NCBI RefSeq assembly: GCF_001642725.1
Contig: NZ_LSUQ01000022.1
Coordinates: 1-41,736 of the forward strand
From: Ferroacidibacillus organovorans
GTDB lineage: Bacteria > Bacillota > Bacilli > Alicyclobacillales > SLC66
DNA length: 41,736 nt
Direction: 5' to 3'
A model generated the notes under the pieces. That model was not told where the DNA came from. It was given only the letters and a program-made list of their open reading frames with translations, and made no database searches. Of this stretch, positions 1,611 to 25,714 are shown one piece after another. The position numbers and the translations under genes are program-made. Positions within the stretch are counted from its first letter, which is position 1, and each line of letters starts with the position of its first letter.

Positions 1611-1817
1611 GTGATGGTAAACGAGAATCGCTTGACGCAAAAGGAGGATGAGGTGCGGAGTGAGGAAGCCTGCGCGAGGTTTCTGCGAGCGGAACAGTTT
1701 CGGGCGCGCTTTCGTGTGGAAGAGCAAAGCGGCGAGGCATCTCTTCAAGCGTTGCTTGAGTTACGCTTACAGCGAATCGTCGAAACGTGGCCTGCTGAGG
1801 AGGATTTGCGCGTGTAG
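1611..1817 (+). CDS. Small hypothetical protein; candidate recombination directionality factor of element 1
   Basis: 68-aa ORF with GAGGGGG RBS immediately upstream of LSR1; function inferred from position. Confidence 0.55.
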   Translation: MMVNENRLTQKEDEVRSEEACARFLRAEQFRARFRVEEQSGEASLQALLELRLQRIVETWPAEEDLRV

Positions 1818-1868
1818 TTAATGGTTGCAAAACGTTGGGGATGTGAACACGGCGGGAGGGAGACGCGG

Positions 1869-3392
1869 ATGCGCTGTGCGATCTATGCGCGGGTTTCGAC
1901 CGATCGACAAGGCGAGTCTGTTGACCATCAGGTTTCGCTCCTGCGCGAGTTTGCCAAACGTCGGGGGCAGGACTGGGAGGTTTTGGAGCATCTCGTTTTT
2001 GAGGATGAGGGGGTTTCGGCGACAAAGGTTTCCATTTGGACGAGACCTGCAATGAAGCGACTGATGGAGGCGGCGGAGCGGTCGGAAGTGGATGTTGTCT
2101 TGTTTAAGGGCATCTCACGTCTGGCGCGCAATACGCAAGAGGCGCTCGACGTCCTTGACCGTTTGCGCGCGCGCGGCTTGCGCGTGCTCTCTTACGAGGA
2201 GAGCTACGATTCGGCGAAGGAGAATTCGAACTTCATGTTCACGATGCACGCGGCCATCGCTGAGTATGAGGCAGAGAAGATCGGTGTGCGCGTGCGGCTT
2301 GGCAATAAAGAGAAGGCGAAATCAGGTCGCTGGGTGGGAGGGACACCTCCTGACGGCTACTACGTTGGGCGGGATGGTCATCTGGTGCCTGATGATGCGC
2401 GCGCGGGACTCATCCGTTCGATCTTTGAGCGCTATGCGTTGGATGGGTCATCGTGCGCCGCAATCGCTCGGGAACTGAATGCGCGCGGCGAGACAACGTC
2501 GACCGGGAATGGCTTCTCACAGACAGCGGTTGCGAGAATTCTTGACAACGAGGTGTACGCTGGACACTTGGTTTACAATCGGCGAACGGATCGCACCGTT
2601 CGCGATTACGACAGTGAGGTGCCCGGCAAGAAGAAAGAGCGGCGAATGCCGAATGTGCGGACAGAGTGGGTAGTGGTACACTGCGCTCATCCACCGTTGG
2701 TAACGCCGGATCTTGTGCAAATGGCACAAATGCGCCGCGGCCGTGTGCGCAGCCAAGCGCCGCGCACAACGCATTTGCTGACAGGAGTCCTCTCTTGCGG
2801 GCGCTGCCGCGCACCCTTGATCGCGCAGGTCAAACGCACGGCAAAGCGGGTCTATCGCTATTATGTCTGCCGCACGTACCACCAAGCGGGGAGGCAGGCG
2901 TGCGCGCAAGGAAGTGTCCCTGCGGATGATCTTGAGTCCTATGTGCTGACGCGCTTGTCTGAGCGCTTGCGCGAGGTGAGCATCAACGTGCTTGCACCCG
3001 CTTTGCAAAGCGCGTGCGCGCAAGGGGAGGAGCAGGCGAAACGCGAACGCGAACGCATCAATCGGCAACTCACGCGTCTGACGGACGCTTGGATTGCGGC
3101 GCAAGTCGATGATGTCCTGGCAGGTCAGGCCGCGTCTATTCGGGGGCGCATCGCGCGCCTGACGGCAGAGCGTGACGCGCTTTACAAGCGCCTGACGCAG
3201 GCGGGGTTGCACAGACACAAACGTGCGCAGGAGATCTATGCGCGGCTTGTCGATCTGGCGCAGGATGAACCTGCGATGAAACGATACTGGGTGCAAATGC
3301 TGATCTCGTCGCTCGTCGTGCACGATCGTACCCTCCTGATCCAGTACACGTTTTCTTCATCTGACGACACCCCGATCGATGGGAACGTTTGA
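1869..3392 (+). CDS. Large serine recombinase LSR1
   Basis: YARVST catalytic motif, SRLARN, recombinase domain, CGRC...C zinc ribbon; GGGAGGG RBS before ATG 1869. Its 3' end overlaps the yhbH junction. Confidence 0.95.
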
Positions 3393-3733
3393 GAAATATA
3401 TGGCGCGAACGTTTTTCTTCTGGATGGTGCGCTTTTTGCGTACGCGCTATGAGAAGGTTGACATCCAATTTATCGCTCATCACACGGAAGCGCTCGTCGT
3501 CACAGAGGATGAATTTTTCACAAAGGGTGAGAGCGGAGGCACCATCTGTTCATCCGCGTATCAGACGGCACTCAATCTGATTGATGATCGCTATCCGCCG
3601 TCGCGCTACAACATCTACCCTGTGCACTTTTCTGACGGCGACAACCTCTCTTCTGACAACGAGCGGTGTGTGCGCCTCGTTGACGAACTGATGGGACGGT
3701 GCAACATTTTCGGATACGGTGAGGTCAATCAAT
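3376..3733 (+). CDS. yhbH: Sporulation protein YhbH (DUF444), internal segment of split gene
   Basis: [17 protein letters not shown]...GESGGT.CSS...HFSDGDN...YGEVNQ is typical of YhbH; homology stops at the core repeat. Confidence 0.92.
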
Positions 3734-3775
3734 TGAACGGCGTGCGCTCTCTCCACTCCTCATGGTTGAGATCCC

Positions 3776-5341
3776 CTAAAAGAGCAATTCGACATTGAGG
3801 CGTGGACATTCTCCGCCAGTGTCGTTCAGTGTGCGTGTATATTCAATTCTCCGCACGCTTTTGATCAACAACGCGCGCAGATCATCCCCCTTACACGAGA
3901 GGAAAAGGTGGGATGGCTCGCACCTCGCGCGCGCGTTAAGAGCTGATTTGGCGCGATTTGTTTTGTGGTTCGTTTCGTTTCGCTCTTGCTTTAGCGCCTC
4001 AAGGGATTCATTAGCCTGTCGCAGTTGCTCTGCCACTTCATCGTAGCGCGCTTGAAACTGCGTGCGCGTATACACTCCCTGTTCATACATCTCGCAGATT
4101 CGCTTCAATTGTTCTTCCCGTGCCTGGCGCGTCCGCGCAATGACGTGCGCGAGGGAATCAGAGACAGCAGTGAACTCTGTCTGTTCTGGGTTTGGCGTGA
4201 TCGCTACCCCGCGGAATTGATCCGAGAGCGCACGCTGCACAGCGTGCAGGACGAGTTCATAGCGAGCGCTGCGCGTCGGGCAACCTTTTGTGGCACAGCG
4301 CAGTGCATTGTGCGGACGATTTTTCACAGGTTGTCGAACCATGGCGCGCTTGCATGTTGCGCAAAAGATGAGGCCGGCGAGGGGATGGATCTTTTTTTTA
4401 TTGTTGGCTGAGGCACAGGTTGGCGGGCGCTTGGATTCGTTGTTGACACGCTCCCACGTCGCGCAATCTACGATGGGCTCGTGATTTTCTTCGCGAACGA
4501 TCCACGCATCTGGTTCCATCACAACGCGATGATAGCGGGCACGCTCCATCTCACGCACCTTGTGGCTGCGCACGCGTCCCCACACAAGCGCACCGCGATA
4601 GACTGGGTTCAAAAGGATAAAGCGCACGGTCGAAGGCGACCACAAAGCATTCCCCGATGGACTCGGCAACGCCATGGCGCGCAGGCGTTCCGCGATTGCC
4701 GATGGACCAAGGGAATTGCTTGCGAGCGCGTAGATCCACTTCACGACTGGCGCGGTCTGCGGATCGGGGATTAGCTTCAGTTCGTCTGTGCGCAGATAGC
4801 CGTAGGGAGGTCGCTTGCTGATCGAGCGCCCCGCTTTTACACTCTGTTCGCGGCCGCGCTGCATGCGCCGCGTGATTAACTTCAATTCACGGCGAGCGAG
4901 AAAGGATTCGAATTCCGTCCACTCCTCATCCAACTCATCACGCAGGTCGTAGATCTTGCGCGGCGTCACGATGCGCGTGCCGGAGCGCTTAAACGTCTCT
5001 TGAATCACACCCTGGTCGATCAGGTTTCCGCGTCCGAGACGGTCGAGATCCATACAGAGCACCAGGTCGTAGAGTCCATTGGATACATCGTGCAGCAACT
5101 GTTGCATCTGCGGGCGTTCGAGGATGTGCTCACCTGAGGCGATTTCTTGATACGCGCGTCTAATCTCCACGTCGTGTTGACCGGCGAGTTCGCACAGCGC
5201 GCGATGATGTTTGGCGAGCGTTTCGCCGTCTCCGCGCGCTTCGGCTTCGAGATCAGCGCGCGATTTACGCAGATAGAGCGCGGCGCGTAAACGCGGTGAA
5301 TGGACTTGTGATTCATGCACAGTCGTTTCTTTTATCGTCAC
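3776..5341 (-). CDS. Large serine recombinase LSR2
   Basis: YLRKSR catalytic motif, DLDRLGR, PPYGY, CATC...C zinc ribbon; AAGGAGG RBS before GTG; ends ~40 bp from the left core. Confidence 0.95.
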
Positions 5342-5361
5342 ATGAAGCCCTCCTTAGTGCA

Positions 5362-5389
5362 TTGCGCTTTCTATCCATTAGAGTATAAT
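5362..5389 (+). promoter_or_regulatory. Putative sigmaA promoter of the APC transporter
   Basis: TTGCGC-16 bp-TATAAT. Confidence 0.5.
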
Positions 5390-5450
5390 GAGTCACATTG
5401 AACTCGCAGAAGATCCGTCGATGTAAGAAATGATGGAGGCCTCTTATAAC

Positions 5451-7370
5451 ATGGCGTTGTTTCGTCCATGGCTCGATTCGGCAGTGATTACCCTTTCTGT
5501 CGTAGCCATTCTCTATGCATTCTTAAATTTTAATACATTCAAACGAGTGCTCGTCGGATCGCCCATGCGCACCCGCGAGCTACATTCAAAACATAATCGA
5601 CTCTTTTGGCTGATTGCACTACCGATTCTCGCTGCGGATCTTTACTCTTCAGTCGCGTACGGCCCGGAGGCCGGCATTGCGGAACTGACCGTCAATGCGC
5701 ACCTCGGCGTTGACGCCAAGTGGCTGATTCTCCCTGTCACCGGGGCTACCGTCTTGCTATTGATCATTCTTGTCACCTCGTACATCATGGGAGTCATCGC
5801 GTATCCGAACGGCGGTGGCGCGTATGCAATCTCCAAGGACAACTTCAAACGCCCGATCATCTCGCTCATCGCGGCCAGTTCCCTCTTGATCGATTATGTC
5901 CTGACGGTCGCCGTCTCGGTTACGGCAGGGATTCAGGCGATGGCGTCCGCCTATCCGGCGCTTGTTCCGCATGAAACGATCCTTTCGGTCGCATGCATTC
6001 TGCTAATCCTCGTGGTGAATCTGCGTGGTATCTCAGAGTCGGCGACGATTTTTGCGTGGCCGACGTTCCTTTTTATGTTCGCCATGATTTTCTTGATCGG
6101 AACCGGCTTTGTGCAAGAGTTTCATCACGGCTTTGTTCAGCCCGTGACACCGCCGTTTGGTACGCTTCCTAAAGCGCTCACCTCGCTGCTTTTATTAAAG
6201 TCATTCAGCGCGGCGTGTTCCTCACTGACCGGGATTGAGACGATCTCAAACGCGGTTCCGATTTTTCGCGAGCCGAAAACCAAAGGTGCAATCAAAGCGT
6301 ACATCGCGCTCGGCGTGATAACAGGGGTGACACTTCTTGGGTTCTCTTATCACCTTTATGTGAACGGGATCAACGTCATGCCAAACACGACGATGGAGTC
6401 ACAACTCCTGTCGCTCTACTTCGGCTTTGGCCCGATCTATCAAATTATCATCTGGCTGACGTTTATCGTGCTCATCCTCGCGGCAAACTCGACATTCACC
6501 GGATTTCCGCAATTGGCTGCGCTCGTCGCGGCAGACAGCTTTCTCCCGCGCGCCCTCATGCTGCGCGGAGATCGTCTCGGATACTCCAATGGGATGATCG
6601 TGTTGGCTGCGTTTTCCACCATCCTCGTTGTCGTTTTCAATGCACAGACCGATAATTTGATTCCTCTATACTCGATCGGCGTTTTCGTCGCCTTCTCTGT
6701 GGCACAGATTGGACTCGTGCGCTACTGGCTGCGCGAAAAGAAGGGTCGTTGGAAAACAAAACTGACGATCAACCTGATTGGCTCAATCGTAACCATGCTG
6801 GTGTCTGTCGTTGTCTCCGTGACAAAGTTTACGAGCGGTGCGTGGATCATCTTCATTGTTCTCCCGATTCTCCTGTTTATCGCGCTCGCTGTGCGCCGCC
6901 ACTATACGCAGATCGCGAACGAATTGCGGATTGACATGTCATGCATTCGCCCGGAATCACACCGTGTGATCACGGTCGTGCTGGTGTCTGGCGTCAATCG
7001 CGTCGTGCTTAACGCCCTTTCTTTTGCAAAGAGCATCAACAACGAAGTGATCGCGCTCTATATCGGCTTTGACGATGAATCGATCGAGCGCATCGAAAAG
7101 AAGTGGAATGAATGGGAGTGTCCCTGCCGATTGATCACCGTCAAAAGTGAGTATCGCTCGATTCTCTATCCACTGTCTCGCTTTATTGGGCGGCTGCAGT
7201 CGATGGAAGACGGGAAACCGGATCACGTTCATGTGATGATCGCCCAGTTTGTGCCTAAGAAGTGGTGGCACAACATTCTGCATAACCAGACGTCACTCGT
7301 GATCCGTGCTTGGCTTTTACGGCACCGGGATGTCGTGGTAACGACGATTCCCTATCATTTACACGATTAA
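5451..7370 (+). CDS. APC-family permease, KimA/YdaO-like K+ transporter
   Basis: KRVLVGSP...D.YSSVAYGPE, YPNGGGAY, LLIDYVLTVAVS and C-terminal HNQT...PYHL; about 12 TM segments. Confidence 0.88.
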   Translation: MALFRPWLDSAVITLSVVAILYAFLNFNTFKRVLVGSPMRTRELHSKHNRLFWLIALPILAADLYSSVAYGPEAGIAELTVNAHLGVDAKWLILPVTGATVLLLIILVTSYIMGVIAYPNGGGAYAISKDNFKRPIISLIAASSLLIDYVLTVAVSVTAGIQAMASAYPALVPHETILSVACILLILVVNLRGISESATIFAWPTFLFMFAMIFLIGTGFVQEFHHGFVQPVTPPFGTLPKALTSLLLLKSFSAACSSLTGIETISNAVPIFREPKTKGAIKAYIALGVITGVTLLGFSYHLYVNGINVMPNTTMESQLLSLYFGFGPIYQIIIWLTFIVLILAANSTFTGFPQLAALVAADSFLPRALMLRGDRLGYSNGMIVLAAFSTILVVVFNAQTDNLIPLYSIGVFVAFSVAQIGLVRYWLREKKGRWKTKLTINLIGSIVTMLVSVVVSVTKFTSGAWIIFIVLPILLFIALAVRRHYTQIANELRIDMSCIRPESHRVITVVLVSGVNRVVLNALSFAKSINNEVIALYIGFDDESIERIEKKWNEWECPCRLITVKSEYRSILYPLSRFIGRLQSMEDGKPDHVHVMIAQFVPKKWWHNILHNQTSLVIRAWLLRHRDVVVTTIPYHLHD

Positions 7371-7375
7371 AACAG

Positions 7376-7450
7376 GATAGACGGTAGCATGGCGCTCTCT
7401 CGCCACCGTTTACGGGAAAATAATCGGCTGCGCCGTTATTTTGAGATAGA
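7376..7450 (+). repeat. ~75-bp two-hairpin repeat, copy 1
   Basis: Near-identical to 28265-28340; begins and ends with GATAGA. Confidence 0.85.
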
Positions 7451-7473
7451 GACAAGCGAGCCTCCCATATCGT
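7446..7473 (+). promoter_or_regulatory. Putative sigmaE-type promoter for ORF 7497
   Basis: ATA (7446-7448), 17 bp, then CATATCGT (7466-7473). Confidence 0.4.
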
Positions 7474-7496
7474 TAAGAAGATAGGGAGGTGTTTTT

Positions 7497-7697
7497 ATGC
7501 CGTCTACGACGTACTACCTTGATCACGCGATCGTAACCATTCACGTTCGCTGCGAATGGAACGCAAAATCGTTTGATGGAGTGGTGGAGACTCCAATCTA
7601 TCGCACGTTTTGCGAAGCGGTGCGGCGTGTTGCCAGCAATGGACAGGCAGAGAGCCGGGATGGGTCAATCAATACAACCGCAGCTCCACGCTCATGA
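7497..7697 (+). CDS. Small protein crossing the right att site; candidate directionality factor of element 2
   Basis: Strong AGGGAGGT RBS; ORF reads through the core; on the excised circle it would stop right after the core (59 aa). Confidence 0.6.
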   Translation: MPSTTYYLDHAIVTIHVRCEWNAKSFDGVVETPIYRTFCEAVRRVASNGQAESRDGSINTTAAPRS

Positions 7698-7816
7698 GCG
7701 CGTACCGTAACATTCGCTCGCCTCGCTTTCGCTGTGCGGTCATCAAGGATAAAGCGGAGGTTTACAAAGCGCTACGCACCTTCTTTTCCACTGCAGAAGG
7801 AGGGATCGTACCGTGA
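7663..7816 (+). CDS. yhbH: YhbH C-terminal segment
   Basis: [17 protein letters not shown]...VYKALRTFF matches the YhbH C-terminus; its stop overlaps the spoVR start (GTGA). Confidence 0.9.
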
Positions 7817-7991
7817 CACCAGATGAGATTCGCGAACTTGAGTCGTCGATTGAACGCATGATGGAGCTGGCGCAAGGGTTTGGACTTGACTTCTATGACA
7901 TGCGATTTGAACTGGTACCCGCCGACGTGTTATACACGTTCGGCGCGTACCAAGGCATGCCGACCCGCTTTTCACACTGGTCGTTTGGTAA
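7813..7991 (+). CDS. spoVR: SpoVR segment 1 (N-terminus)
   Basis: GFGLDFY.MRFE...[28 protein letters not shown]. Confidence 0.93.
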
Positions 7992-8018
7992 GACAAAGCA
8001 CCATGTGTATGAAAAAAA

Positions 8019-9437
8019 TTAGACATTCCAGTTGATCTCAAGATCTTGATTGGGACGAAGAAGGATCGTTTTGATGGCGGCCCGTAAAACTGCTTGGCGA
8101 GCGTCAAAATCCAGATCGTCCCAGCTCTGATCGATCAGACGCATAAGATTGAACAGGTCCTCTTTACGTGCGGGCTCGGGCGCTGCCTCCTCCAACGTAT
8201 CACGTTGTAACCATAACGCGCGTTTCTCGGCTTCTAATGCATCGATTCGTTCTTTCAGATGAGATGGCTGAATGAACCCTTCCTCAAAAGCGTCGTACCA
8301 TCGGTTTAATCGATGATCAATCTGGGTTAATTTTTCTTCAATCGCGGATAACACCACGCATGATTGGCGTTGTTCTTCAGTAGAGAGCTCAATTTCTGTG
8401 CGCAGGTCTTCCATGTCAATGGCGGTTGATCTCACCTTAGCGATGATCCAAGCTTCGAGTTTTTCTTGAGGGAAATAGCCTAATTGGCAGTGTTCTTGCC
8501 CTTTTCGATCTCTTTTGCGCACATGTTGATTCTTACAGGCGTAGTATTCGTAGGTATGTGTTTGTCTCTTTGTGCGAACGCGAATGACAGAGCTCCCGCA
8601 TAAGCCGCAACGACACAAACCGGAAAGCAAGTATGCGCCTGTCGATGTCAGACCGTTGCGGCGACGAGCCGTTTCATTTTGAACCATTGTGTATAGATCC
8701 AGAGGGATGATTGCCTCATGCTGACCCTCCACAGGCTCCGAAGGGCCGTTGGGTAACCTCCCGGTATAGATGACCCGGTCGAGGATGGATTTAATTCCGT
8801 TGTGATCGACCTTGATATCAGTACTGCGTGCATTGAGCCAATCAGCCAGTTCGAGTCGCGATTTACCTTGGAGATACATCTGGTTTATTTTACGAATGAG
8901 TTCTGCTTTTTCAGGAACGATCACCAACGTTTGATTCTGTTTATCCCAACGGTAACCAAAAGCGACCCTGCCTCCACTCCATCGACCCTGGCGAATCCTC
9001 ATTCGTCGTCCTGACGTTGTTCGCTCAATGATCATGTCACGCTCCAACTGTGCGAATACCGCAAGGATTCCAATGGTTGCCTTGCCCAAAGGTGTCGCGG
9101 TGTCAAAGGGCTCTGTTGAACTTTTGAAAGCGACATTGTTTTTTTCAAAGACATCCTCGAGGAGATGCAACACATCCTTTTGTCTTCGACTAAGACGGTC
9201 GAGTTTATAAACGACGACAAGATCAATTTTTCCTTCTAGGGTGTGCTTGATAAGTCTGGTCATTGCAGGACGATCAAGCTTCGTGCCCGTATAACCGTCA
9301 TCAATATAAAATCGGTAGTCTTCCCAACCCTGTGAGGCACAGTAGGCAATAAGTCGATCTCGTTGGTGATCGATTGAAAATCCCTGCATCGCTTGTTCTT
9401 CCGTGGAAACGCGGATATAGAGGGCAATCTTAGTCAT
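8019..9437 (-). CDS. Large serine recombinase LSR3
   Basis: [24 protein letters not shown]...C; likely start ATG 9437 with GGGG RBS; ends 27 bp from the left core. Confidence 0.95.
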
Positions 9438-9617
9438 AGCACACCCCATTGACTTTATTGATGTGACTTGATGCCAATGAATGATTGCTTCACCGTTATG
9501 ATATTTACGTTGTTTTGCAAAATGCGGCTCCACAACTCATATTTAAAAACAATCAAGAGGATATACGTATTCAGTTGGAGGTTTATAACCACAAATAACG
9601 ATTCGATAAGCTGGCAA

Positions 9618-9643
9618 ACGGACGTGCCGCTTGAGCATAGCCT
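9618..9643 (+). promoter_or_regulatory. Putative sigmaK-type promoter for the 46-aa ORF
   Basis: AC (9618-9619), 16 bp, then CATAGCCT (9636-9643). Confidence 0.4.
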
Positions 9644-9661
9644 TAATTAGGGGGTGTGCTT

Positions 9662-9802
9662 GTGGAGGAAAAACCGATCAAATTAAATCCGGATGCGGCA
9701 CGGTTGATTTTACGCCTGTGTGTTGAGGCCATACGTAGAGCGAACGCGAAACGGGGAAGAGAACGGGTAGAGGGCGTACAAAATCTTCAAGAGGGCGCTT
9801 AG
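9662..9802 (+). CDS. 46-aa ORF divergent from LSR3 (not in ORF track); candidate directionality factor
   Basis: GTG...TAG encodes MEEKPIKLNPDAARLILRLCVEAIRRANAKRGRERVEGVQNLQEGA; GGGGG RBS 7 nt upstream. Confidence 0.55.
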   Translation: MEEKPIKLNPDAARLILRLCVEAIRRANAKRGRERVEGVQNLQEGA

Positions 9803-9870
9803 CCTTCTTATGTAGGACAGGCCACAGTGAGTATGTATGCACGAGTAAACACCCGATATACGCACTGCAA

Positions 9871-10092
9871 ATCTTCAGCTAAGTGTAACAAAGCATTTCG
9901 AATCCGTTGCCTTGCGTGTGGAGTTAGTTTGTCTATAAATTTTTGTGCGTCTTTGCTCAGGAGTAGATTGTATATTCAGTTTTCCACGAAGATCTCATCA
10001 AAGGGAACGAAGTCGCCATTTCTCATCTCTTGCCGAATCCGTTTATATTCTGCAATCTCTGCGTCTGTCACGGGTTCATCATCCTCGTTCAT
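9871..10092 (-). pseudogene. Remnant RelBE/ParDE-type toxin-antitoxin pair
   Basis: 10092-9976 gives MNEDDEPVTDAEIAEYKRIRQEMRNGDFVPFDEIF (antitoxin C-terminus-like). 9975-9871 gives YNLLLSKDAQKFIDKLTPHARQRIRNALLHLAED (RelE N-terminus-like, truncated, no ATG). Confidence 0.65.
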
Positions 10093-11039
10093 GAATCACT
10101 TGCTTTCTTTGTACGGGAGGCAATTTTCATGATTTCGTTGGCAACAACAACCTCTGTTCCTGCTAAGCCCACAGAGCAGAATAGAGTAATATCGGTTTCT
10201 GTCATTCTTCCGGATGCTTTTCCACATACGATTTCGGACAGTTGCACAATGCGATTTTCACATTTCGTATCCACCAAGAAATGGGGTGTTTTATAAGCGT
10301 GAAGCTGTTCGATCGAGTCCGTCGCGATGATCGTACTCTTAATGCCCAAATCGAGGGGTACCTCATGCCAATTTTTAGTTTTTGGGCCAACCGTATTGAT
10401 GTGTGTTCCTGGTTTGAGCCAGTCGGATTCGAATACAGGAGTGCCACTGTTGGTCGCACAGATGACGATATCGGCATCTTCGATGCAATCTCTTGGGGAA
10501 GTGGCAACTGCGATATTCGCATGGATCTTCTTGCGCATTCCCTCTGCAAATGCTTCTCGGTTTTCTTGCTTGCGGCTATAAACCTTAATACTTTTAATGT
10601 TTCGTACAGCCACGGCTGCCTCCAATTGTGTCCGCGCTTGTAGTCCCGTACCCATCACGGCGATTTTTTTTGCATCGACTCGAGCCATGGCGTTTATTGC
10701 TGCGCCACCGATTGCGCCAGTACGAATGGCACCGATGAGATTGCCGATGACCACTCCCTTAAAAACACCCGTATCCGAGTCAAAGACGCACACGAGCTGT
10801 TGATGACCCTCTGCATCATTTTCGTACGTATCGTAGACACGAAATCCAGTAACCTTTTCGAGTCCAGTTGCGGCTCCTGCCGTAAAAACCAAGTTGCCCT
10901 GTTCCGCTTCCACACGGAAACGTGGCGGTGATACAAGGGTTCCGTTTATTTGCTCCTGAAAGCAACGTTCGATGGCGTTCACGATCCGCTTCATGGAGGC
11001 AAACGATTCAACATCGTGATCCGTAAGAATGGAGTACAT
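10089..11039 (-). CDS. Ornithine cyclodeaminase/mu-crystallin family protein
   Basis: IRTGA.G, GTGLQA, ADIVICAT, HINTVG, F.SVGLA motifs. Confidence 0.9.
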   Translation of the reverse strand: MYSILTDHDVESFASMKRIVNAIERCFQEQINGTLVSPPRFRVEAEQGNLVFTAGAATGLEKVTGFRVYDTYENDAEGHQQLVCVFDSDTGVFKGVVIGNLIGAIRTGAIGGAAINAMARVDAKKIAVMGTGLQARTQLEAAVAVRNIKSIKVYSRKQENREAFAEGMRKKIHANIAVATSPRDCIEDADIVICATNSGTPVFESDWLKPGTHINTVGPKTKNWHEVPLDLGIKSTIIATDSIEQLHAYKTPHFLVDTKCENRIVQLSEIVCGKASGRMTETDITLFCSVGLAGTEVVVANEIMKIASRTKKASDS

Positions 11040-11244
11040 GCAATACACCCCTTCACTGTTCCAATCTGTTACAGTGCGTTTTGTGACGTAAAGGATCTCA
11101 GCGAGTGCCAGGGAACGTCCATCTTCAATTATTTAAAACAAATCGATGCGAATGACAGCATCAAAGGATTCCATTGACCCATGAATAGGACGGTTTAATT
11201 TATTGTGTCTACGTGCTATTGCATAAATCCTCAAGGGATATTAA

Positions 11245-12261
11245 CTAACCATACACCTCTGCCATCCAATTGGCGTAATCGGACACCGCTTGGATCAATT
11301 TTTCCAGCTCTTGCAAAGTATGTATGACTTCTCTGCGCCCCAACTCTCTGTCATCCATGTTGAATAGATCTCTGTTTAAGGAGCGACGCATGTTGTATTC
11401 GAGCCATCCTAACATACCTCCGAAACTGCCGTACACAGCATCTAATACTTCATTGTGCAACGTTCCGCCAGCTTCGAGATAAGCCTGAATCACTCCCTGG
11501 AAACGTTCCTTACTCACGGTCCCGTCGTGACTTCTGCTCCAATTAAATGCCACCTCGACTAATTCTACAGTTGGATGTATATAACCTGCCGATTCCCAAT
11601 CGATCAGATATGGAATGCCTTCGTGATTCCAAATAACATTTTTAGAATCTAAATCCCGATGACTAATGACAAATTTCTGGGGAAGATTGTCTACTGCATC
11701 CTGATACTTTCGAGACCAGTTGGTCACATCTTGCAAGATACTTTCACAAGAAAGACCCCAACACGATGCGTCCCGTCGAGCATTCTCGATGTGATACCTC
11801 TACGTATCGAAGGAAATTGCCGAGAAAGTTGGTAACGCCGAACCATCAATGACAATATCGAGGTTGTGTATCTGGAACAAAATCTCTCCGATGTGCTTAA
11901 CGTGCTCAGACGTACAATTTTCGGGAAGCAACGTGATACCATCGACCCAGTCAAACACCATCACATATTCACCATGCAATTCAATCCATGGTTGACGATC
12001 TACAGTTCTTGCAGAAACCGCACGAATGCCCTTTATATTAGCCTGATGTGCGACTCTTTCTGACATTCTATAATTGGTCTTTGCATCAGGACGAGACATT
12101 ATCTATGAATTCAGTACTTTTATTGCAAATCGTCCGTGGTCTGTCTCTAAACACCACATTCGATGGAGTAATCCGCCTGTGACGGGTTGTGGAGTTCCTT
12201 GGGGAATTCCAATTTCAAAACCATCGCATATCGCATTCAAATCGACACTCAAGCGAGTCAT
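11245..12261 (-). pseudogene. Aminoglycoside-phosphotransferase-like kinase with two in-frame TAG stops
   Basis: Three ORF pieces share one frame, separated only by TAG at 12103-12105 and 11800-11802. Motifs GGLLHRMW, HRDLDSKN, IDWE. Confidence 0.82.
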
Positions 12262-12292
12262 TTGATTTCCCCTCATCAGTAGAATAAGCCCT

Positions 12293-12721
12293 TTAGCAGA
12301 GTGACAAGCGGCAGTGAAACCGCTCAACTCCGGGATATTTCTCACCAAGGGACCGTATTTCAAATCCATATCTACGATAAAATTCAACCGCATCATGATC
12401 TGTTTCGGCAGTTAATTCCGTGAGATTCTCAAGCATAAGGAGGTTATCTATCATTCTTCGACCAATTCCGCAGTTACGCTTGTGTTCATCGACGGCAATG
12501 TGAAGAATTTCAGCAGAAAATCCTTCTCTCTTGAAACCAATGATGCCTAGCGCTGCGTCGTCATTATCGATGAATACATATAGTTTCGTATCACTTTGCG
12601 AGTACACTTGCACCAAAATATTGCTGAGCTTTTCATCCGTGGCGGAGCCGACCGCGTATGACAACCATTGTTTTATCTGCTCGATGGATGTGATATGGCT
12701 TCTGTACTCAACCAGCGTCAC
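12293..12721 (-). CDS. GNAT acetyltransferase
   Basis: HIAVD...RNCGIGR and AVEFYRRYGF motifs; GGGAGGG RBS before GTG 12721. Confidence 0.88.
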   Translation of the reverse strand: MTLVEYRSHITSIEQIKQWLSYAVGSATDEKLSNILVQVYSQSDTKLYVFIDNDDAALGIIGFKREGFSAEILHIAVDEHKRNCGIGRRMIDNLLMLENLTELTAETDHDAVEFYRRYGFEIRSLGEKYPGVERFHCRLSLC

Positions 12722-12786
12722 AAGCGACCCTCCCTTCCTCAGCAACCAAGCTTCGTTTGTCTCCCGTGAATCAAATCCAAACGATG

Positions 12787-13725
12787 TTATTTAGCGAGTT
12801 CTACAGCCAACAGCGCACCTACGTGCGCATTGTTCTTTACCAGTGCCACATTTGTCTCCAGGCTTTTACCATCGGTCAGTTCTTTAATTTTATCGAGAAG
12901 AAAAGGGGTTACGTCCTTGCCCCTGATGTGTTTCCGATGCGCTTCGTCCAGCGCTTCTGTAATGACTTTTTCAATTTCTTTTGCATCCATTGCGAATTCC
13001 TCGGGGACAGGATTCGCAATGACAGCCCCGCCATGGAGTCCGAGTTTCCACTTCGTGTGTAGGAATGAAGCTAATGCCTCCGGGCTGTCGAGCGAAAAGT
13101 TTGTCTGGAATCCACTTGTGCGACTGTAGAATGCAGGGAACTCGGTGGTCTGGTAGCCAATGACTGGGACGCCGTATGTCTCCAGGTATTCGAGTGTAAG
13201 TTCAATATCGAGGATCGATTTTGCGCCAGCACAGACAACGGCCACGTTGGTCTGCGCAAGCTCGTTCAAGTCCGCAGAGATGTCCATCGTTTGTTCGGCG
13301 CCGCGATGTACACCGCCAATACCACCCGTGACAAATACGCGGATACCCGCAAGCTGAGCGCAAATCATCGTTGCAGCAACCGTGGTCGCGCCACTCTGTC
13401 CTTGTGCGAGAACAAATGCCAAATCACGGCGACTGACCTTTGTGATACTGTCTCGATTTTCAGGGCATCCGAGCCATTCAAGGTTCTCATCGGAAAGTCC
13501 GATATGGATTTTTCCGTTCAAAATTGCAATCGTCGCCGGGACCGCGCCATGGTATCGAATAATGGCTTCGACTTCCTTTGCCGTTTGTACATTGGTTGGA
13601 TAAGGCATGCCATGTGAAATAATGGTCGACTCAAGCGCGACAATTGGCTTCTCAGTTCTCTTTGCCTCCATTACTTCATCCGAAAAATGCAACCATTGGT
13701 TTAACGACGGGTTCATATCTTCCAT
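12787..13725 (-). CDS. psuG: Pseudouridine-5'-phosphate glycosidase
   Basis: [47 protein letters not shown]. Confidence 0.95.
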
Positions 13726-13740
13726 CTCTCCTATGATGTT

Positions 13741-14850
13741 CTACAGAATTTCTGACAACCAGGCTTGAGCCTCGCGTGGGTCGATTTCTGTAGATACGGT
13801 TTCTTTTGTCACCAACGTTAGGCTGGACAAGCGAGCGGCAAATTGACATGCCTGTTTGACACTCGCATCGCTGACCATCGCAAAGCAGAAGCCAGCCACG
13901 AATGCGTCACCTGCACCAGTCACATCGACGACGTCGATGCTCTCTGCCGGTATTTTGCCAAAGGTGCCTGCCTCATCCAACCAAGCCACACCATCCCTGC
14001 CCATAGTTGCGACAACGGTCCGACACCCCCTATCTTTCAGTGCGACACATGCGGCGCGAACGCTATCCTCTTTATCGACAGGGATACCTGAAATTGCCTC
14101 CATTTCATCTCGATTGGCGATCAGCGTATGAATCCCGGTAAGGTCTCTTGGCAAGCGCTTGGCTTTGGGACTTGATACCGGAGCAACAATCAGTAAAGTG
14201 CCAGCCCTTGCCGACTCGGTAATGACAAAGGCAAGCGCTTCTGCCGGCAAGTTCGTGTCGACGATCGCAATCGTAGCTTGTTGCAGCACCCGCGATCTCG
14301 GTGTCAACTGCTCGACGGTTAAGTCGTCGTAAATTTCCATATCGGCGAGCGCAACAGTCATACTCCCGTCGACGTCGAGCACCGCAGTGTATGTTCCTGT
14401 GCGGTGTGCAGTCGATCGGATGATCTGGCTGACATCTGTACCAAGGCCCTCAAGGTGCGCGAGTATCATTTCGGCTTCTTTGTCGTTGCCGACCATGGTG
14501 ACAAGCGACGTGGGTAATCCGAGGCGTGTCATATTTTCGGCAATATTTCTTGCAACGCCACCAAATGACTCTACAACAAAAGAGGGGTTCGACGTGCCTA
14601 GCTGGATTGGTTCATACGCTTGAATTTTTCGATCTACATTCGCACCGCCGATGCACAAAATACGCCCTCGCTGTGGCAAAACGTAGGCCCGACCGAGAAT
14701 CTCCCCCTCTTTGATGAGCGCAGAGATATAAGCTGCTACCGCAGGTCTGGATGCATTCATTCGTTCAGCCAAATCTCGTTGGGAGATAAACGGGTTTTCA
14801 CGGATACAATGTAGAACTTCCTGTTTCTTGCTCCGACCCGACTCAGCCAC
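13741..14850 (-). CDS. psuK: HTH-PfkB kinase, pseudouridine kinase-like
   Basis: N-terminal HTH (NPFISQRDLAERM), GGVARNIA and DVTGAGDAF motifs; adjacent to psuG. Confidence 0.85.
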   Translation of the reverse strand: MAESGRSKKQEVLHCIRENPFISQRDLAERMNASRPAVAAYISALIKEGEILGRAYVLPQRGRILCIGGANVDRKIQAYEPIQLGTSNPSFVVESFGGVARNIAENMTRLGLPTSLVTMVGNDKEAEMILAHLEGLGTDVSQIIRSTAHRTGTYTAVLDVDGSMTVALADMEIYDDLTVEQLTPRSRVLQQATIAIVDTNLPAEALAFVITESARAGTLLIVAPVSSPKAKRLPRDLTGIHTLIANRDEMEAISGIPVDKEDSVRAACVALKDRGCRTVVATMGRDGVAWLDEAGTFGKIPAESIDVVDVTGAGDAFVAGFCFAMVSDASVKQACQFAARLSSLTLVTKETVSTEIDPREAQAWLSEIL

Positions 14851-14862
14851 ATCGTCACTCCT

Positions 14863-14909
14863 TATAACACATGTTATATTAGGTTAAACAATTGTTTGTT
14901 AGCAGTCAA
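14863..14909 (-). promoter_or_regulatory. psuKG promoter with two AACA-NN-TGTT palindromes
   Basis: Minus-strand TTGACT-17-TAACCT; palindromes at 14866-14875 and 14887-14896. Confidence 0.55.
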
Positions 14910-14973
14910 TCTACGATAGAAATTGCCGCATCGGTGATTTTACATCAATCTGAAATTTTCATATACCTGGTGT

Positions 14974-15620: not shown

Positions 15621-15755
15621 TTCGGATTGCAAAAATGGTTTTTTTCATAGCGTACGAAAGATCCAAATGACACGAGTGATTCCGAAGGATTCTAGAATCC
15701 CCAACAAGGAGGCAACGCAAGAGCCCCCTTGTTTACGTAAACTTCAAGGGAGTTT

Positions 15756-16247
15756 TTATTCAGCCACGTCTGTGCGAACGAAAAACGCTGGCGGTTCTTT
15801 GCCCAAGAGTCGGAGGTAGACATAGCCTTGTCCGCGGTGATGAATCTCATTCTCGAGAGCGTAAGTAAGCCAACTCATCGCCGTGCCGTCAGGTCCACCC
15901 CAAAATGGCTCCGATCGCATGATTGTAAGCGATTCCATAGAAATCGATGGCCAAAGCTTGCGCGTTTGTTCGCGAACGTGTTGTCCATAGGCGAGCGCTT
16001 CTTGGATTGGAGCAGTCCGCAGCTCGTCTGGGATCCCTTCCCACTTCCATTGATCAAGCGCCAAACCCCTCAGATAGGCGTTTTCAATGCCCCAAATCTC
16101 AAAGAGCATCTCGCGAAACGGTCGCATGCCATTTACGGGCTGCTTGTCCATCGCTTCTGCGGCGTCCAAGTCGCGCGCAACAAAATTCGTGAGCCGCCGA
16201 TTCTCTTCCCACACATCCAAAAACCAAGATTTCCAGTCGAATTCCAA
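15756..16247 (-). CDS. DinB-family protein
   Basis: MRPFREM and [17 protein letters not shown] motifs; AAAGGAG RBS before TTG 16247. Confidence 0.85.
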
Positions 16248-16318
16248 GATGAACACTCCTTTTGAAGAATCCATGGCGTACGTTTGTACGATAGCACACG
16301 TGACATGCCAAAAACATC

Positions 16319-16549
16319 CTATTTTTCCGGTTCCCCATCAAAGAATGTAATCTGTGCCGCGCGCGCGATGTCTTCGTTTGTTTCTTGTTCAATCCATGTG
16401 CGCAAGGCCGCTTCGCGGACAGATTTGCACCACGTGGTGAGTTGTTGCTCTAGATGTGTCCTCACGGTTAAATCCGGGATTTCAGCGAGTTGTGTAAACG
16501 ATTGTTCGACATCGCCTATCTTAATCGAAAATCTGACGCGAACGGCCAT
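16319..16549 (-). CDS. 76-aa protein divergent from LSR4; candidate directionality factor
   Basis: GAGG RBS; position relative to LSR4 mirrors element 3. Confidence 0.55.
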   Translation of the reverse strand: MAVRVRFSIKIGDVEQSFTQLAEIPDLTVRTHLEQQLTTWCKSVREAALRTWIEQETNEDIARAAQITFFDGEPEK

Positions 16550-16788
16550 CTTTCCTCACCCCATGTTCATGGATATGAGTGGAGAATCGCGGGACAGCCC
16601 TGTGCAATTTGCTTTGTGATCTATGGTGATATTGCACACCTTCGTCTGAAACGCCACATTGACCAATTTGGGATTGAAATCTACCGTAGAGAGTAGCTGA
16701 ACAGAGACAGGACCTAGAATGCGCCACCCACTCATAGGCATAGAGAAGACGTGATTCGAATGCCTTGGTGAGGTGAGCGGAATCGGCG

Positions 16789-18309
16789 ATGCGTGAAAAT
16801 GCAGCGAAAAAGATTGCGATTTACTGTCGCGTATCCACGGATGAGCAGGCAAAAGAAGGCGTGTCGCTCGATGAGCAAAAGGCGAGGCTTCACGCGTACT
16901 GTCGCGCGATGGGTTGGGCGACAGAAGCTGTAGAGTATATTGATGACGGCTATTCGGCGAAAAATATGGAGCGTCCGGCGCTTGAACGCTTGTTGCGACA
17001 TGTGAAGGCAGGGCGCGTTGAGCGGCTCATGGTGACAAAACTCGATCGATTGAGTCGGCGTTTGCTTGATTTGTTGACGCTGATCGAACTGTTTCAAAAC
17101 CACGACGTTTCATTCGTATCGACAAGCGAATCCTTTGATACAGCGACGCCTTCCGGTCGCTTGACACTGCAGGTGCTCGGAGCTGTCGCGGAGTTTGAGC
17201 GTGAGCGCATACGTGAGCGCGTTTTTGACAACATGCTGCATGCAGCAAAAATGGGGAAATGGTTGACACAAGCTCCATACGGCTATCGGCTCGACGCGAA
17301 AAAGTTGGTTATTTGTGAAATGGAGGCGCTTCTTGTTCAGCGCGTCTTTCGCATGTTTGTCGAAGATGGTTTGGGATACTTTCAAATTGCAAAGAAATTG
17401 AATCAGGAACACATCCCTTCTCGCAATGGGAAGGCGTGGTCGATTCGGAGTGTCAAAATCATGCTGAGTAATCCTGCCTATGCGGGAACGCTTGTGTGGA
17501 ATCGCGTTGATTCGAGTCAAAAGCGTCGAGTGCTTAAAGAAGAAGACGCGTGGGTCGAGATGCGCGACGCTCACCCAGCGATTGTTGAACAGGCGCTGTG
17601 GCATCAGGCGCAGCAGCGCATCGCGAGCCATCCGCGAATGCCGCCGCGCGCGCAAGCCAGCCCTCATCTGCTGGGTGGCTATTTGCGTTGTGGAGAATGC
17701 GGCGCGGCGATGTCGATCGGTTGGTCTGGAAATCCGCGGCGAACGCGCGTCTATCGCTGTTCTGCGTATCGAAATCAGGGGCTTTGTCAGAGTAAGCCGT
17801 ATCGTGCAGACGATGTGGAGCGGTGGTTTGTGGAGGCGCTTGAATGCGTGGTGGAGCCTGTGAATCATGCGCGGCACACCGCTTTGGTTCAGCGTGTGCG
17901 GGCGGAGCAGATCGCCAAATTGGATCAGAGGATGCACGCCGCGAAAATGCGCTATGACAGACAGGTAGAAGCGTATACGGCGGGACTCATCGAGATGGAT
18001 ACCCTTGCGCGTGAAAAGGTGGCGCTGAAGCGATGTGTCGCAGAGTACGCAAAGGAGATGTCGACGACGGATTCATCTTCACATGATAAGGAGCTGGAGG
18101 AACGCCTGCGCGGACGGGCGGTTACGCTCGGCGATGCGCTAACCGTGCTTCCGGCTGACTGGATCAAAGCGAAACTGCGCACATGGATTCACAGCGTCAT
18201 TCTTCACGGACGTGAGGATCTTGAGATTGTGTTGTGTCCTGATCTGACGATGGTTTCTGATGCAATGGATCAATCCATTGGAGGATTTTTAGAGTATGGT
18301 GTCGAATGA
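16789..18309 (+). CDS. Large serine recombinase LSR4
   Basis: YCRVST, KLDRLSR, VAEFER, APYGY, CGEC...C. Confidence 0.95.
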   Translation: MRENAAKKIAIYCRVSTDEQAKEGVSLDEQKARLHAYCRAMGWATEAVEYIDDGYSAKNMERPALERLLRHVKAGRVERLMVTKLDRLSRRLLDLLTLIELFQNHDVSFVSTSESFDTATPSGRLTLQVLGAVAEFERERIRERVFDNMLHAAKMGKWLTQAPYGYRLDAKKLVICEMEALLVQRVFRMFVEDGLGYFQIAKKLNQEHIPSRNGKAWSIRSVKIMLSNPAYAGTLVWNRVDSSQKRRVLKEEDAWVEMRDAHPAIVEQALWHQAQQRIASHPRMPPRAQASPHLLGGYLRCGECGAAMSIGWSGNPRRTRVYRCSAYRNQGLCQSKPYRADDVERWFVEALECVVEPVNHARHTALVQRVRAEQIAKLDQRMHAAKMRYDRQVEAYTAGLIEMDTLAREKVALKRCVAEYAKEMSTTDSSSHDKELEERLRGRAVTLGDALTVLPADWIKAKLRTWIHSVILHGREDLEIVLCPDLTMVSDAMDQSIGGFLEYGVE

Positions 18310-18353
18310 ATAAGATTATTGTAGGTTGACGGTTTTTTGTGAGGGATCTAGGG

Positions 18354-19265
18354 ATGGCCAATTCGGTAATTAAAAATTACTCGGACGACATTCGAACTGA
18401 GATTTATCGAGTGACGAATGAGCTACTGGAGCACCTGCACCTGTATTATCAGCCATTTCCTGAATTTGATGCTGTCCGATTTCCGGCAACGGCGCTGACG
18501 ACCGCGACGGAAGGCTTTTTTTTACCGATGATGCTACTAAAAAAGATGGTTGTTATTCCTGTGTGGATTTTTACGATTGATGACGTGATTGATCGTAAAT
18601 TGTTGTCGGATGAAGAATTGGATGCTCGACTGAAAAGTTATGAATGGATCATCACGCAGGGGCTGGATGCGTCTGACGTGTATGGTCGCGTGTTGAAGGA
18701 TCTTTATGACCAGCTAAAAGAGAGGCCGCTTTTTCACGCGTTGCGAGAAGTGTGGGAAGAAGCCTATTTTCGAATGATCCGTGGGATGCTTCTTGAAGCG
18801 CGTGAAACCGTTCGAGTCCCATCGTATGATGAATATCTCGAACACGGATCGTACAGCATTGGCGTTCCGCTCTATGTCGTTTCGACGTGGATTCTCGGTT
18901 CTTATGAAGAAACATTAACGCATCTAGAAGTCCTAAAAAAGCTGATGATGCTGTCGGCGAAAAGCATTCGGCTTGCCAACGACATGCGTACATACGAAAA
19001 AGAGAAAATGGAAAAGAACCTAAACGCGCTTGTGATCATGGAGAATACGTACGAGTCAGAAGGCTACGCGCCTGACGCGGCGAAAGCGTTGGCGTCTGCA
19101 TTTGTACGGGAAGAGTTGGAGCGCTATCGCACGCAGTTTCTTGAATTGGTTGATGAATCGGTACTGCCAATCAGAACGCTGTCAAACGTTACTCAGTTTT
19201 CGCTGTCGTTTTATGATGAGCATGATTTTCATACCGTTGATGCGGGGGAGATCCACCATGTTTGA
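18354..19265 (+). CDS. Class I terpene synthase
   Basis: DDVID (DDxxD) and NDMRTYEKE (NSE/DTE) motifs, YDEYL; start could be GTG 18339. Confidence 0.85.
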   Translation: MANSVIKNYSDDIRTEIYRVTNELLEHLHLYYQPFPEFDAVRFPATALTTATEGFFLPMMLLKKMVVIPVWIFTIDDVIDRKLLSDEELDARLKSYEWIITQGLDASDVYGRVLKDLYDQLKERPLFHALREVWEEAYFRMIRGMLLEARETVRVPSYDEYLEHGSYSIGVPLYVVSTWILGSYEETLTHLEVLKKLMMLSAKSIRLANDMRTYEKEKMEKNLNALVIMENTYESEGYAPDAAKALASAFVREELERYRTQFLELVDESVLPIRTLSNVTQFSLSFYDEHDFHTVDAGEIHHV

Positions 19266-20763
19266 AAACGCGGGTGAAGACGATGCTTCAAAAACGGATG
19301 TGAAGCGCAGAGCGCGTGACTTGGTCGAGCGATTGCAGGGCGGCGCGATGGGATCGATCGCTTATGACACTTCGTGGGTGGCGCGCTTAAAAAATCGGGA
19401 TGGTTCTCCGAAATTCCCGACTACGATCGCCTGGCTGCGCGCGCATCAACACGCGGACGGAAGTTTTGGCGCGCGCGATGAAACGTTGCATGACCGGCTG
19501 ATTTCTACGCTCGCGAGCGTTAATGCACTGACGACGTTGCACGATGAAACGGATAGCGAGCGCATCTCTCGCGCACTTGACTATGTGGCGCGAAACGGTG
19601 GTCGTCTGCGCGCGGATGACGCTGAAACGATTGGTTTTGAGTTGCTTTTTCCTTCGCTACTCGAAGAGGCAAAAGGCTATGGATATCGACTGCCTTTTGA
19701 ATCCTTCGGATGGGTTGAAGAACTGGGGAAAAGAAAGTTGAGCGCAGTTCCCGCGTCGTGGATCTACGAAGCGGAGTCTCCACTTATCCACAGCATCGAG
19801 TTTCTCGGAAAAACAGCACAGATTGATCGCATGGCGCAACTCGTTTCGGTCAACGGATCGATCGGAAACTCTCCATCCGCCTCGGCATTTGTCTATGGGC
19901 AAACGGACGACCCCCGACTGGAGGCGTATTTGCGTCAGATTGTAGAGACGTCTGAGGATGGCGGTGTCTGCAATGTTCAACCGTTTGAAATTTTCGAAAC
20001 GGCGTGGGTGTACTTCAATCTACAGTTGGCTGGAATCACGGTTGAGGGAATGCAAAAAGGATTGCATGAGATTGAGCTGTCATTCAGGCCGCAGGGTGTC
20101 GGGATTTCCCGCAATGGCCTAATGCCAGACGCGGATGACAGTGCACTCGCCGTCAATGTGCTAGCTCGCGCTGGACGCCGAATGTCACTCCAGTTTTTGG
20201 ATTTTTATCAAGCGGAACGCGGATTTTTATGTTTTCCGTATGAGCGCAACCCTTCGATTTCAACCAATATCCACATCCTTGACGCGCTGCGTGCGTATGA
20301 GCCGCAAGAAGTGGCGCCTCATGTGGATAAGATTCTCACGTTTTTGCGCGAGGCTCAACAGGAAAATGCGTATTGGAAAGATAAATGGCATGCCTCTCCA
20401 TTCTATACAACAGCGCATGCGATTCTGGCGCTGCGAGGATTGACTGAGTCACTGATAAAAACGGCGGTCGATTATTTAATTGAATCGCAACGGCCTGATG
20501 GTTCGTGGGGGATTTTTAGGGGTACGGCGGAAGAAACGGCGTATTGTGTACAGGCGTTGACGCTTGCGCTTCCTTATTCTGCGGATGTGGACAAGCGGCT
20601 TGCACGTGCACTTTCTTTTTTAAGTAGCGAGGGGGCAAAAAAACCTCACTCTGAACTCTGGATTGGGAAGGGGCTCTATGCGCCAACCTATGTGATTGAC
20701 GCTACGATTCTAAGCGCGCGCGCGCTCTACCAGAGATGGAGGTACTCTCATGAAAAAGGATGA
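19258..20763 (+). CDS. Class II diterpene cyclase (copalyl/halimadienyl diphosphate synthase-like)
   Basis: YDTSWVA, QHADGSFG and QRPDGSWG (QW repeats), catalytic DADD, DKWHASPFY, EETAY, LWIGKGLY; GGGGGAG RBS before ATG 19258. Confidence 0.92.
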   Translation: MFENAGEDDASKTDVKRRARDLVERLQGGAMGSIAYDTSWVARLKNRDGSPKFPTTIAWLRAHQHADGSFGARDETLHDRLISTLASVNALTTLHDETDSERISRALDYVARNGGRLRADDAETIGFELLFPSLLEEAKGYGYRLPFESFGWVEELGKRKLSAVPASWIYEAESPLIHSIEFLGKTAQIDRMAQLVSVNGSIGNSPSASAFVYGQTDDPRLEAYLRQIVETSEDGGVCNVQPFEIFETAWVYFNLQLAGITVEGMQKGLHEIELSFRPQGVGISRNGLMPDADDSALAVNVLARAGRRMSLQFLDFYQAERGFLCFPYERNPSISTNIHILDALRAYEPQEVAPHVDKILTFLREAQQENAYWKDKWHASPFYTTAHAILALRGLTESLIKTAVDYLIESQRPDGSWGIFRGTAEETAYCVQALTLALPYSADVDKRLARALSFLSSEGAKKPHSELWIGKGLYAPTYVIDATILSARALYQRWRYSHEKG

Positions 20764-23068: not shown

Positions 23069-23071
23069 AGG

Positions 23072-24184: not shown

Positions 24185-24231
24185 AGATGTCGGCATGGAT
24201 CGATTTGTATCGCATAGATTTTTTATAAGTG

Positions 24232-24305
24232 TTGTCATTTTTAAATTGACCGTGCTAGAATAAGCATAACGATTTAGCATAACGATATACTAAATCGTTA
24301 TGCTT
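24232..24305 (+). promoter_or_regulatory. sigmaA promoter and LacI-type operator array
   Basis: TTGTCA-18-TGnTAGAAT; perfect 16-bp inverted repeat at 24262-24277/24290-24305 with a third GCATAACGAT copy between. Confidence 0.75.
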
Positions 24306-24337
24306 GATTTGAACAAAATGATGAATGGAGGGTCGTC

Positions 24338-25627: not shown

Positions 25628-25654
25628 GAAAATGCTGAATGAAAAAATGGGAAT

Positions 25655-25686: not shown

Positions 25687-25714
25687 GCGAAATAACCTGA
25701 GGTGTAAACGCGAT

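Follow-up and report, generated by a model that had tools for sequence, protein, structure and literature searches.

A probable excision factor gene spanning the right att site of a yhbH-interrupting LSR element in Ferroacidibacillus organovorans

Sporulation-linked LSR elements and the interrupted yhbH locus

The mechanism by which a large serine recombinase (LSR) and its recombination directionality factor (RDF) excise an element and restore a sporulation gene is already known. An RDF activates attL x attR recombination and inhibits attP x attB. In the SPbeta system, as described in the available parts of PMC4191935, PMC5499854, and PMC11722253, the LSR SprA and the RDF SprB of about 58 aa restore the mother-cell gene spsM, likewise as a pair of an LSR and a small RDF. 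The gin element of B. cereus lies in gerE and, like the element studied here, is not a prophage; it carries the LSR GirC and a tiny orphan RDF, GirX, and is excised during sporulation (available text of PMC5595907). The skin element (spoIVCA/skr) and the elements in sigK, spoVR, spsM, and gerE are of the same class, namely LSR elements splitting mother-cell genes, and spoVR is among the targets listed in the available text of PMC6957869. The name yhbH has 0 occurrences in PMC6957869. No report of yhbH-splitting elements was found in the open-access literature, and subscription papers or supplements could hold one.

The window analysed here is a stretch of 41,736 nucleotides from F. organovorans (NZ_LSUQ01000022.1). 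G000 denotes the genome holding the window, G001 a congeneric genome, and L-numbers the loci or genomes of relatives. The LSR2 element is 3,940 bp long, is bounded by the repeat GGTCAATCAAT at 3723-3733 and 7663-7673, and contains LSR2 (3776-5341, minus strand), an APC-family permease gene, and a small ORF. LSR2 has 521 aa and belongs to the YLRKSR subfamily, as do Int30, Nm60, and Bt24. The cargo permease of the APC superfamily (5430-7370, plus strand; PF13520, with PF02705 below the cut-off) lies between LSR2 and the small gene; we take it to be KimA/YdaO-like, and a paralog on contig C2 is 61% identical. The core GGTCAATCAAT is 11 bp in the window and about 4 bp alone are shared in G001; the 11-bp core was rejected as the functional unit. 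Crossover probably takes place at the central CA (3730-3731 and 7670-7671). The left att core (3723-3736) includes the palindrome TCAAT-CA-ATTGA (3725-3736), and its last three bases form the TGA stop codon of the circle form.

As a correction to the initial annotation, the gene interrupted by this element is yhbH and not spoVR, which two other LSR elements cut at points farther downstream. yhbH exists in three pieces, one on contig C91, a middle segment at 3379-3733 (plus strand, model positions 215-331), and a 3' segment from 7674 to 7816 (plus strand). Excision in silico brought the 3' segment in frame with the middle segment and restored an open yhbH frame. Intact yhbH was not found elsewhere in the 96.8%-complete genome, and full-length yhbH is present in many relatives. 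The LSR and its att pair split a sporulation gene whose frame excision would restore, as in the sporulation gene-intervening elements. Segment 1 of spoVR (7813-7991, plus strand) is cut by the next element, that of LSR3. Stop and start codons overlap at 7694-7697 and 7813-7816. The Rfam scan of 3600-8100 gave 0 matches.

Four LSR elements (1821-3392, 3734-7673, approximately 7992-14967, and approximately 15625-28430) occupy one yhbH-spoVR operon in the window. Because two of them lie in yhbH and two in spoVR, a complete operon needs four excisions. Across the order, breaks in yhbH recur at two sites (model positions ~217 and ~331-335) in many genomes; some are broken at both, and many others keep yhbH intact. 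At 3379-3392, the LSR1 frame passes through the att of its own element and continues into the middle segment of yhbH, so the C-terminus of LSR1 is also state-dependent. The LSR3 element is absent from G001. In run X6, its depth was approximately 12-28, compared with approximately 240 in the flanks, and the contig end at 14967 appears to run on into spoVR segment 1, pointing to an empty LSR3 site in the population. The cargo of the LSR4 element (18339-24184) comprises terpene synthase, squalene-cyclase-like, GGDEF/HD, and polyprenyl synthase genes. On contig C17 of G000, another sigK-like gene is split into two parts (34688-35026 and 41242-41592) on either side of an LSR (approximately 39560-41059), while intact sigK is on C81. 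A small ORF with a CATA box upstream was seen near the LSR of each other element (1611-1817, plus strand; 9656-9802, plus strand; and one ending near 16552, minus strand), and these are candidate RDFs of the other three elements. The ORF at 1611 shows 79% identity in G001, with saturated synonymous changes.

The small gene, its family, and its promoter

The small gene starts with ATG at 7497 and ends at 7697 (plus strand), giving 66 aa in the integrated state. Its RBS, GGGAGGTG (7484-7491, plus strand), is conserved in G001. When the ends of the 3,940-bp circle were joined in silico, TGA at 3734-3736 ended the frame after codon 59. The strong RBS, the ORF running through the right core, the 66 and 59 aa, and the position of the TGA had all been described initially, and these sequence facts hold; the placement at the opposite end of the element from LSR2 was also borne out. 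The dN/dS of codons 1-46 against G001 was 0.17, and that of LSR2 was 0.16. Third positions held 21 of the 35 differences from G001 (P = 0.001), the residue conservation was matched by 0 of 20,000 permutations, and the other five frames of the region had dN/dS of at least 1.5 or contained stops. The G001 ortholog is 70% identical and occupies the same place, and near-identical database proteins carry the label Ferroacidibacillus organovorans. The small ORF is a real conserved coding gene, beyond a chance ORF. It is the sole small ORF with a good RBS in the LSR2 element outside the two large genes and, as in the RDF class, is encoded by the same element as its LSR.

Direct protein searches with the small ORF returned close relatives alone, all within the genus. 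The phmmer search of 1.84 billion representatives gave its own cluster and three repeat-like long proteins, and nothing else. Pfam, NCBIfam, and PHROG scans yielded no credible match, the ESM Atlas had no usable match for the 59-aa form (a family member gave sub-0.8 leads alone), and 0 of 5 candidates held when IMG/VR was scanned with the small-ORF alignment. Tblastn of the rest of the genome, including the neighbourhood of the permease paralog on C2, found no match. Weak matches in two genomes, G008 and G013, fell inside other genes, on the opposite strand or out of frame, and were discarded, as was a weak match of 25 residues in L001.

Relatives of LSR2 at E 1e-70 or better occur in 29 of the 64 genomes of the order, and 33 loci were taken from 27 genomes other than G000 and G001. 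The LSR had the same yhbH position in 17 of the 33 loci, and these LSRs cluster on the tree, on which the G000/G001 pair has a long branch (0.92). Counting G000 and G001, the yhbH-site element is found in 19 genomes of the order. A protein of 61-75 aa, encoded divergently from the LSR, is common to these elements. All 17 other genomes with an orthologous LSR at the yhbH site carry this small family; the gene is directly beside the LSR in 14 of them. In two larger elements that resemble prophages the distance is 2-4 kb, and in the remaining genome the gene and the LSR are on different contigs. The family profile was built from 14 members and matched 18 of the 64 genomes at E <1e-8, namely the 17 and one more, and 14 of these 18 had supplied the members. 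HMMER with this profile found no match in G000 or G001, which was counted against the RDF reading. In both genomes, the small ORF stands instead of the family gene and in its orientation, with the permease gene and a dispersed repeat between it and LSR2. In a set of 401 phylum-wide genomes without a positive control, the profile gave 0 matches at 1e-4. The family had no credible match in Pfam, NCBIfam, or PHROG, and Foldseek of its model found none in the PDB or BFVD at E 0.001. The small genes of group A3, which neighbour more distantly related LSRs, matched the family at 75% and gave no match to the small ORF.

Both ends were in view in 11 related elements, and a homolog of the small ORF was at the right att in 0 of 11; an unrelated longer ORF crossed the right att in 3 of 11. 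The likeness of the placement to that in SPbeta is probably secondary, since the relatives keep the gene beside the LSR and kimA-like cargo now separates the two. The small gene would have come to span the att site because cargo DNA came between LSR and RDF. In L028, L030, and L031, the LSR of the yhbH element has just 416 aa, and the unrelated cargo ORF across the right att looks FolC-like by eye. More distant LSR2 relatives at L035, L037, L039, L041, L042, and L044 are accompanied by another kind of small gene, likewise divergent, whose product has a beta-hairpin and one helix. By eye, this type resembles the verified Bt24 RDF in the available table of PMC12286644.

Profile comparison matched the small-ORF alignment to the family with 60.9% probability (E 8e-5, 49 columns). 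None of 87 column shuffles attained this score, nor did any of 110 small genome ORFs drawn at random from 9,109. In the joint alignment, the hairpin and the last helix line up and the single invariant Trp is aligned in all 18 rows, while the small ORF has an 11-residue gap where the family has its middle helix. The small-ORF model has two strands (3-8 and 11-16) and one helix (37-49) and is poor (pLDDT 59); the family model has two strands and two helices (pLDDT 88). The family in turn matched protein ADA84986.1 of Bacillus phage 11143 (97.6%), whose gene follows the LSR, metallopeptidase, and repressor genes in that phage. ADA84986.1 is letter-identical to the Int30 RDF RS27775 as given in the supplement of PMC12286644. 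According to that paper, the two RDFs of Int30 are functional, RS27775 in vivo, and so is the RDF of Nm60, which is similar to them. LSR2 and the phage 11143 LSR are 34% identical over 384 aa, and the latter agrees with Int30 by eye. Direct comparison of the small ORF with the verified Int30 RDF was not significant (E 0.18), so the link is transitive (60.9%, then 97.6%). The small protein has the N-terminal beta-hairpin, conserved Trp, and C-terminal helix of the Int30/Nm60 type, and its LSR is of the same YLRKSR subfamily; the middle helix before the Trp is missing, with the 11-residue gap in the alignment and no such helix in the model. With moderate support through this transitive link, we consider it a shortened, diverged member of the Int30/Nm60-type RDF lineage that may have lost the middle helix.

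Upstream of the gene is the -10 box CATATCGT (7466-7473, plus strand), which we take to be of the sigmaE/sigmaK type; it is conserved in relatives and kept in G001. Of 16 family genes, 12 have a CATAnnnT box that precedes the start codon by 20-33 nt. A CAAGC block at 7453-7457 (plus strand), a possible and perhaps SpoIIID-like activator site, lies 8 nt upstream of the -10 box. CAAGC at exactly this distance was found in 7 of the 16 family genes and in the window, and the genome has 13 instances of the whole pattern. The support from the family promoter matrix was moderate, because 104 of 3,697 CATAnnnT sites score as high, and this rank is rough as row L015 is mis-anchored. A sigmaE-like promoter had been proposed. 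Its -10 part stood; the proposed -35 'ATA' (7446-7448) belongs to the tail end of a dispersed repeat of about 75 bp, shows no conservation in the family, and was rejected as a conserved element. This repeat (7376-7450) has six copies in the genome (the others at 28265-28340 and on C6, C48, C77, and C98), which are mostly intergenic, 83-92% identical, and with internal hairpins; it has no Rfam match. Two of the six copies are near right ends of elements in the window. The genome contains sigE, intact sigK, and spoIIID, and a mother-cell (sigmaE/sigmaK) promoter for the small gene is probable on these motifs.

The RBS may be masked by a predicted hairpin (7461-7489, plus strand) in which CCTCCC (7461-7466) pairs with it, solely in transcripts starting upstream of the -10 box. 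The predicted energy was -23.6 kcal/mol for the long transcript and -6.5 kcal/mol for a promoter-proximal start; the short transcript also folds weakly over the RBS, and the hairpin is kept in G001. Hypothetically, this could damp expression of the small gene from transcripts that run on from the cargo gene. The interval 7300-7900 showed no terminator-like site, so the initially suggested transcription into spoVR segment 1 is possible. That segment is itself cut by another element, and such a transcript would yield only a truncated SpoVR as long as the downstream elements are in place. A lasting role of the promoter in spoVR expression was rejected because the promoter departs with the excised circle.

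Both the 66-aa and the 59-aa form exist as database proteins, the latter from a metagenome. The 59-aa JGI protein ends exactly at the circle-form residue, and it and an LSR2 ortholog are each on a 4,067-bp JGI contig. This length exceeds 3,940 by 127 bases, which may be an assembler overlap; the lengths and the protein end together hint at a circle. An attB or attP joint of the LSR2 element was found in none of four contig sets (X4-X7), and contigs drop rare forms.

Predicted complex with LSR2 and the weighing of explanations

A complex prediction with LSR2 had been proposed as a check. The model of LSR2 290-521 with the 59-aa form scored 0.81, whereas the best of three controls scored 0.00. 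The mark set for this score was reached by 116 of 157 solved pairs and 2 of 215 mismatched pairs; contact agreement in the complex runs was at least 47% and partner pLDDT at least 51. The model contacts involve LSR2 359-385, 474-495, and 512-521 and ORF residues 4-49. These results support binding of the small protein to LSR2 at the DBD2/coiled-coil junction, as predicted by the model. In the available parts of PMC12286644 and PMC11722253, the RDF site is at this junction, and the modelled site matches it. Of 11 virtual-pulldown hits tested in PMC12286644, 4 were false. A solved LSR2 relative bound to its RDF exists (SPbeta, E 5e-37), so the complex score may partly reflect memory, although neither the family nor the ORF profile matches SprB. 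Two near-invariant interface residues of LSRs are changed in LSR2, N490 (111 of 114 rows) and F513 (107 of 114). These changes could reflect co-evolution with the shortened partner or decay.

We believe that the small gene very probably encodes the RDF of LSR2, because its dN/dS is near that of LSR2, it is the sole RBS-bearing small ORF, and it has the family homology, the shared promoter block, and the complex model. The excision factor proposed at the outset is thus favoured by homology, gene context, and modelling, and as to function it is a prediction. On the model and the homology, LSR2 residues 514-519, which form its C-terminal strand, would be the pairing partner of the second beta-strand of the small protein, and the helix of the small protein would pack at the DBD2/coiled-coil base. 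Binding may redirect the coiled coil, so that LSR2 joins attL x attR and cannot re-integrate the circle. The mother-cell (sigmaE/sigmaK) promoter would time the RDF during sporulation, the RBS-blocking hairpin may silence read-through from the cargo gene, and excision would restore the yhbH frame.

The loss of the 11-residue helix, the long LSR2 branch of the two genomes, the changed conserved LSR residues, and the missing excision joint in four contig sets would also fit a degenerating RDF. Such a protein would descend from the family and no longer switch LSR2, and excision would be independent of it, would use the factor of another element, or would have ended. We consider this unlikely: purifying selection equals that on LSR2, the RBS and the -10 box are kept, the complex model passes, the 59-aa form exists in a metagenome, and the 96.8%-complete genome has shown no second, intact yhbH. 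Still less probable is a cargo gene unrelated to recombination, such as a small partner of the potassium-transporter-like permease, to which we give very little credence. Its co-directional position 126 bp downstream of the permease gene and its restriction to this genus would agree with such a role, but tblastn found no copy elsewhere, even beside the C2 permease paralog, and the homology to an LSR-linked family, the common promoter block, and the LSR2 model speak for recombination.

The initial annotation also emphasised a state-dependent C-terminus. As a description this is correct; a function is probably absent. The att is symmetric about its central CA with arms TCAAT and ATTGA, which makes the TGA that ends the circle form a piece of the recombinase site. 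Residues 60-66 come from yhbH sequence translated in a different frame. Between G000 and G001, codons 60-66 hold 0 synonymous changes and 1 non-synonymous change, which is silent in the yhbH frame, and codons 47-59, where the ORF overlaps an arm of the att, show an indel and a dN/dS of 0.61. The predicted LSR2 interface names no ORF residue after 49, in a model of the 59-aa form, which is not proof of no contact. The 66/59-aa difference looks like an incidental by-product, and a function for the switching tail was rejected on account of the palindrome arm, the poor conservation, and the position outside the predicted interface. A variant of the RDF reading, in which the tail is the switch and the two forms differ in stability or activity and so report the state, could draw on the circle-form stop kept in G000 and G001 and on the presence of both forms in databases. 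It is nevertheless very unlikely: the TGA belongs to an arm of the palindromic att, the one change in codons 60-66 alters the ORF and spares yhbH, codons 47-59 are poorly conserved, the predicted interface stops at residue 49 (in a model without 60-66), and the arrangement occurs in 0 of 11 related elements, three of which have an unrelated longer ORF across the same att. An att-crossing RDF could conceivably be a built-in state sensor, in which trimming from 66 to 59 aa alters stability or activity and locks the reaction; before excision, its promoter and the overlapping stop and start codons (7694-7697, 7813-7816) would feed the downstream yhbH-spoVR fragments and help to order the four excisions. 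We hold this, too, to be very improbable.

Comparison with described systems

The preferred reading, an RDF of LSR2, offers a testable LSR-RDF pair and an unannotated protein family of about 60-70 aa tied to experimentally verified RDFs. It names a probable switch for an element that 19 genomes of the order share at a single yhbH site. A helix-deleted RDF that apparently still binds in the model would help to define the minimal RDF. Four excisions for one yhbH-spoVR operon would make a natural multi-input developmental gate.

The Int30/Nm60 RDFs, as described in the available text of PMC12286644, consist, like the small protein, of a beta-hairpin, a Trp, and a C-terminal helix. Their LSRs belong to the same subfamily as LSR2, and their predicted binding is at the DBD2/coiled-coil junction, as is that of the small protein. 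In contrast to them, the small ORF has no middle helix; it shares about 20% identity with them and connects to them solely through the Alicyclobacillales family. The Int30 RDFs (RS27775 and RS27795) are in a phage lysogeny module according to the same text, whereas the small ORF is in a minimal non-phage element with a probable sporulation promoter.

The likeness to SPbeta sprB, claimed initially, stood for the job and the likely mother-cell promoter, and failed for ancestry and for conserved placement (0 of 11 at attR). In the available parts of PMC4191935, the sprB promoter has a perfect -10 and an imperfect -35 just upstream, as at the small gene. The C-terminal helix of SprB is predicted at the coiled-coil base, like that of the small protein, but SprB starts with a helix (residues 1-13; available text of PMC11722253), whereas the small protein starts with a beta-hairpin (strands 3-8 and 11-16). 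Even with E values as high as 10 allowed, the ORF and family profiles (A1 and A2) did not match the SprA-SprB fusion chains, which are in the searched library. With no sequence match and no N-terminal helix, the small ORF was rejected as a homolog of SprB (YotN). SPbeta is a phage with opposite-end placement, while the LSR2 element is without a phage and its placement is not conserved in its family. The gin element differs in its target gene and in the 42 aa of GirX, and is likened here by its description in the available text of PMC5595907, not by sequence. Compared with the skin-type class as presented in the available text of PMC6957869, the present locus stands out in that four elements split one yhbH-spoVR operon.
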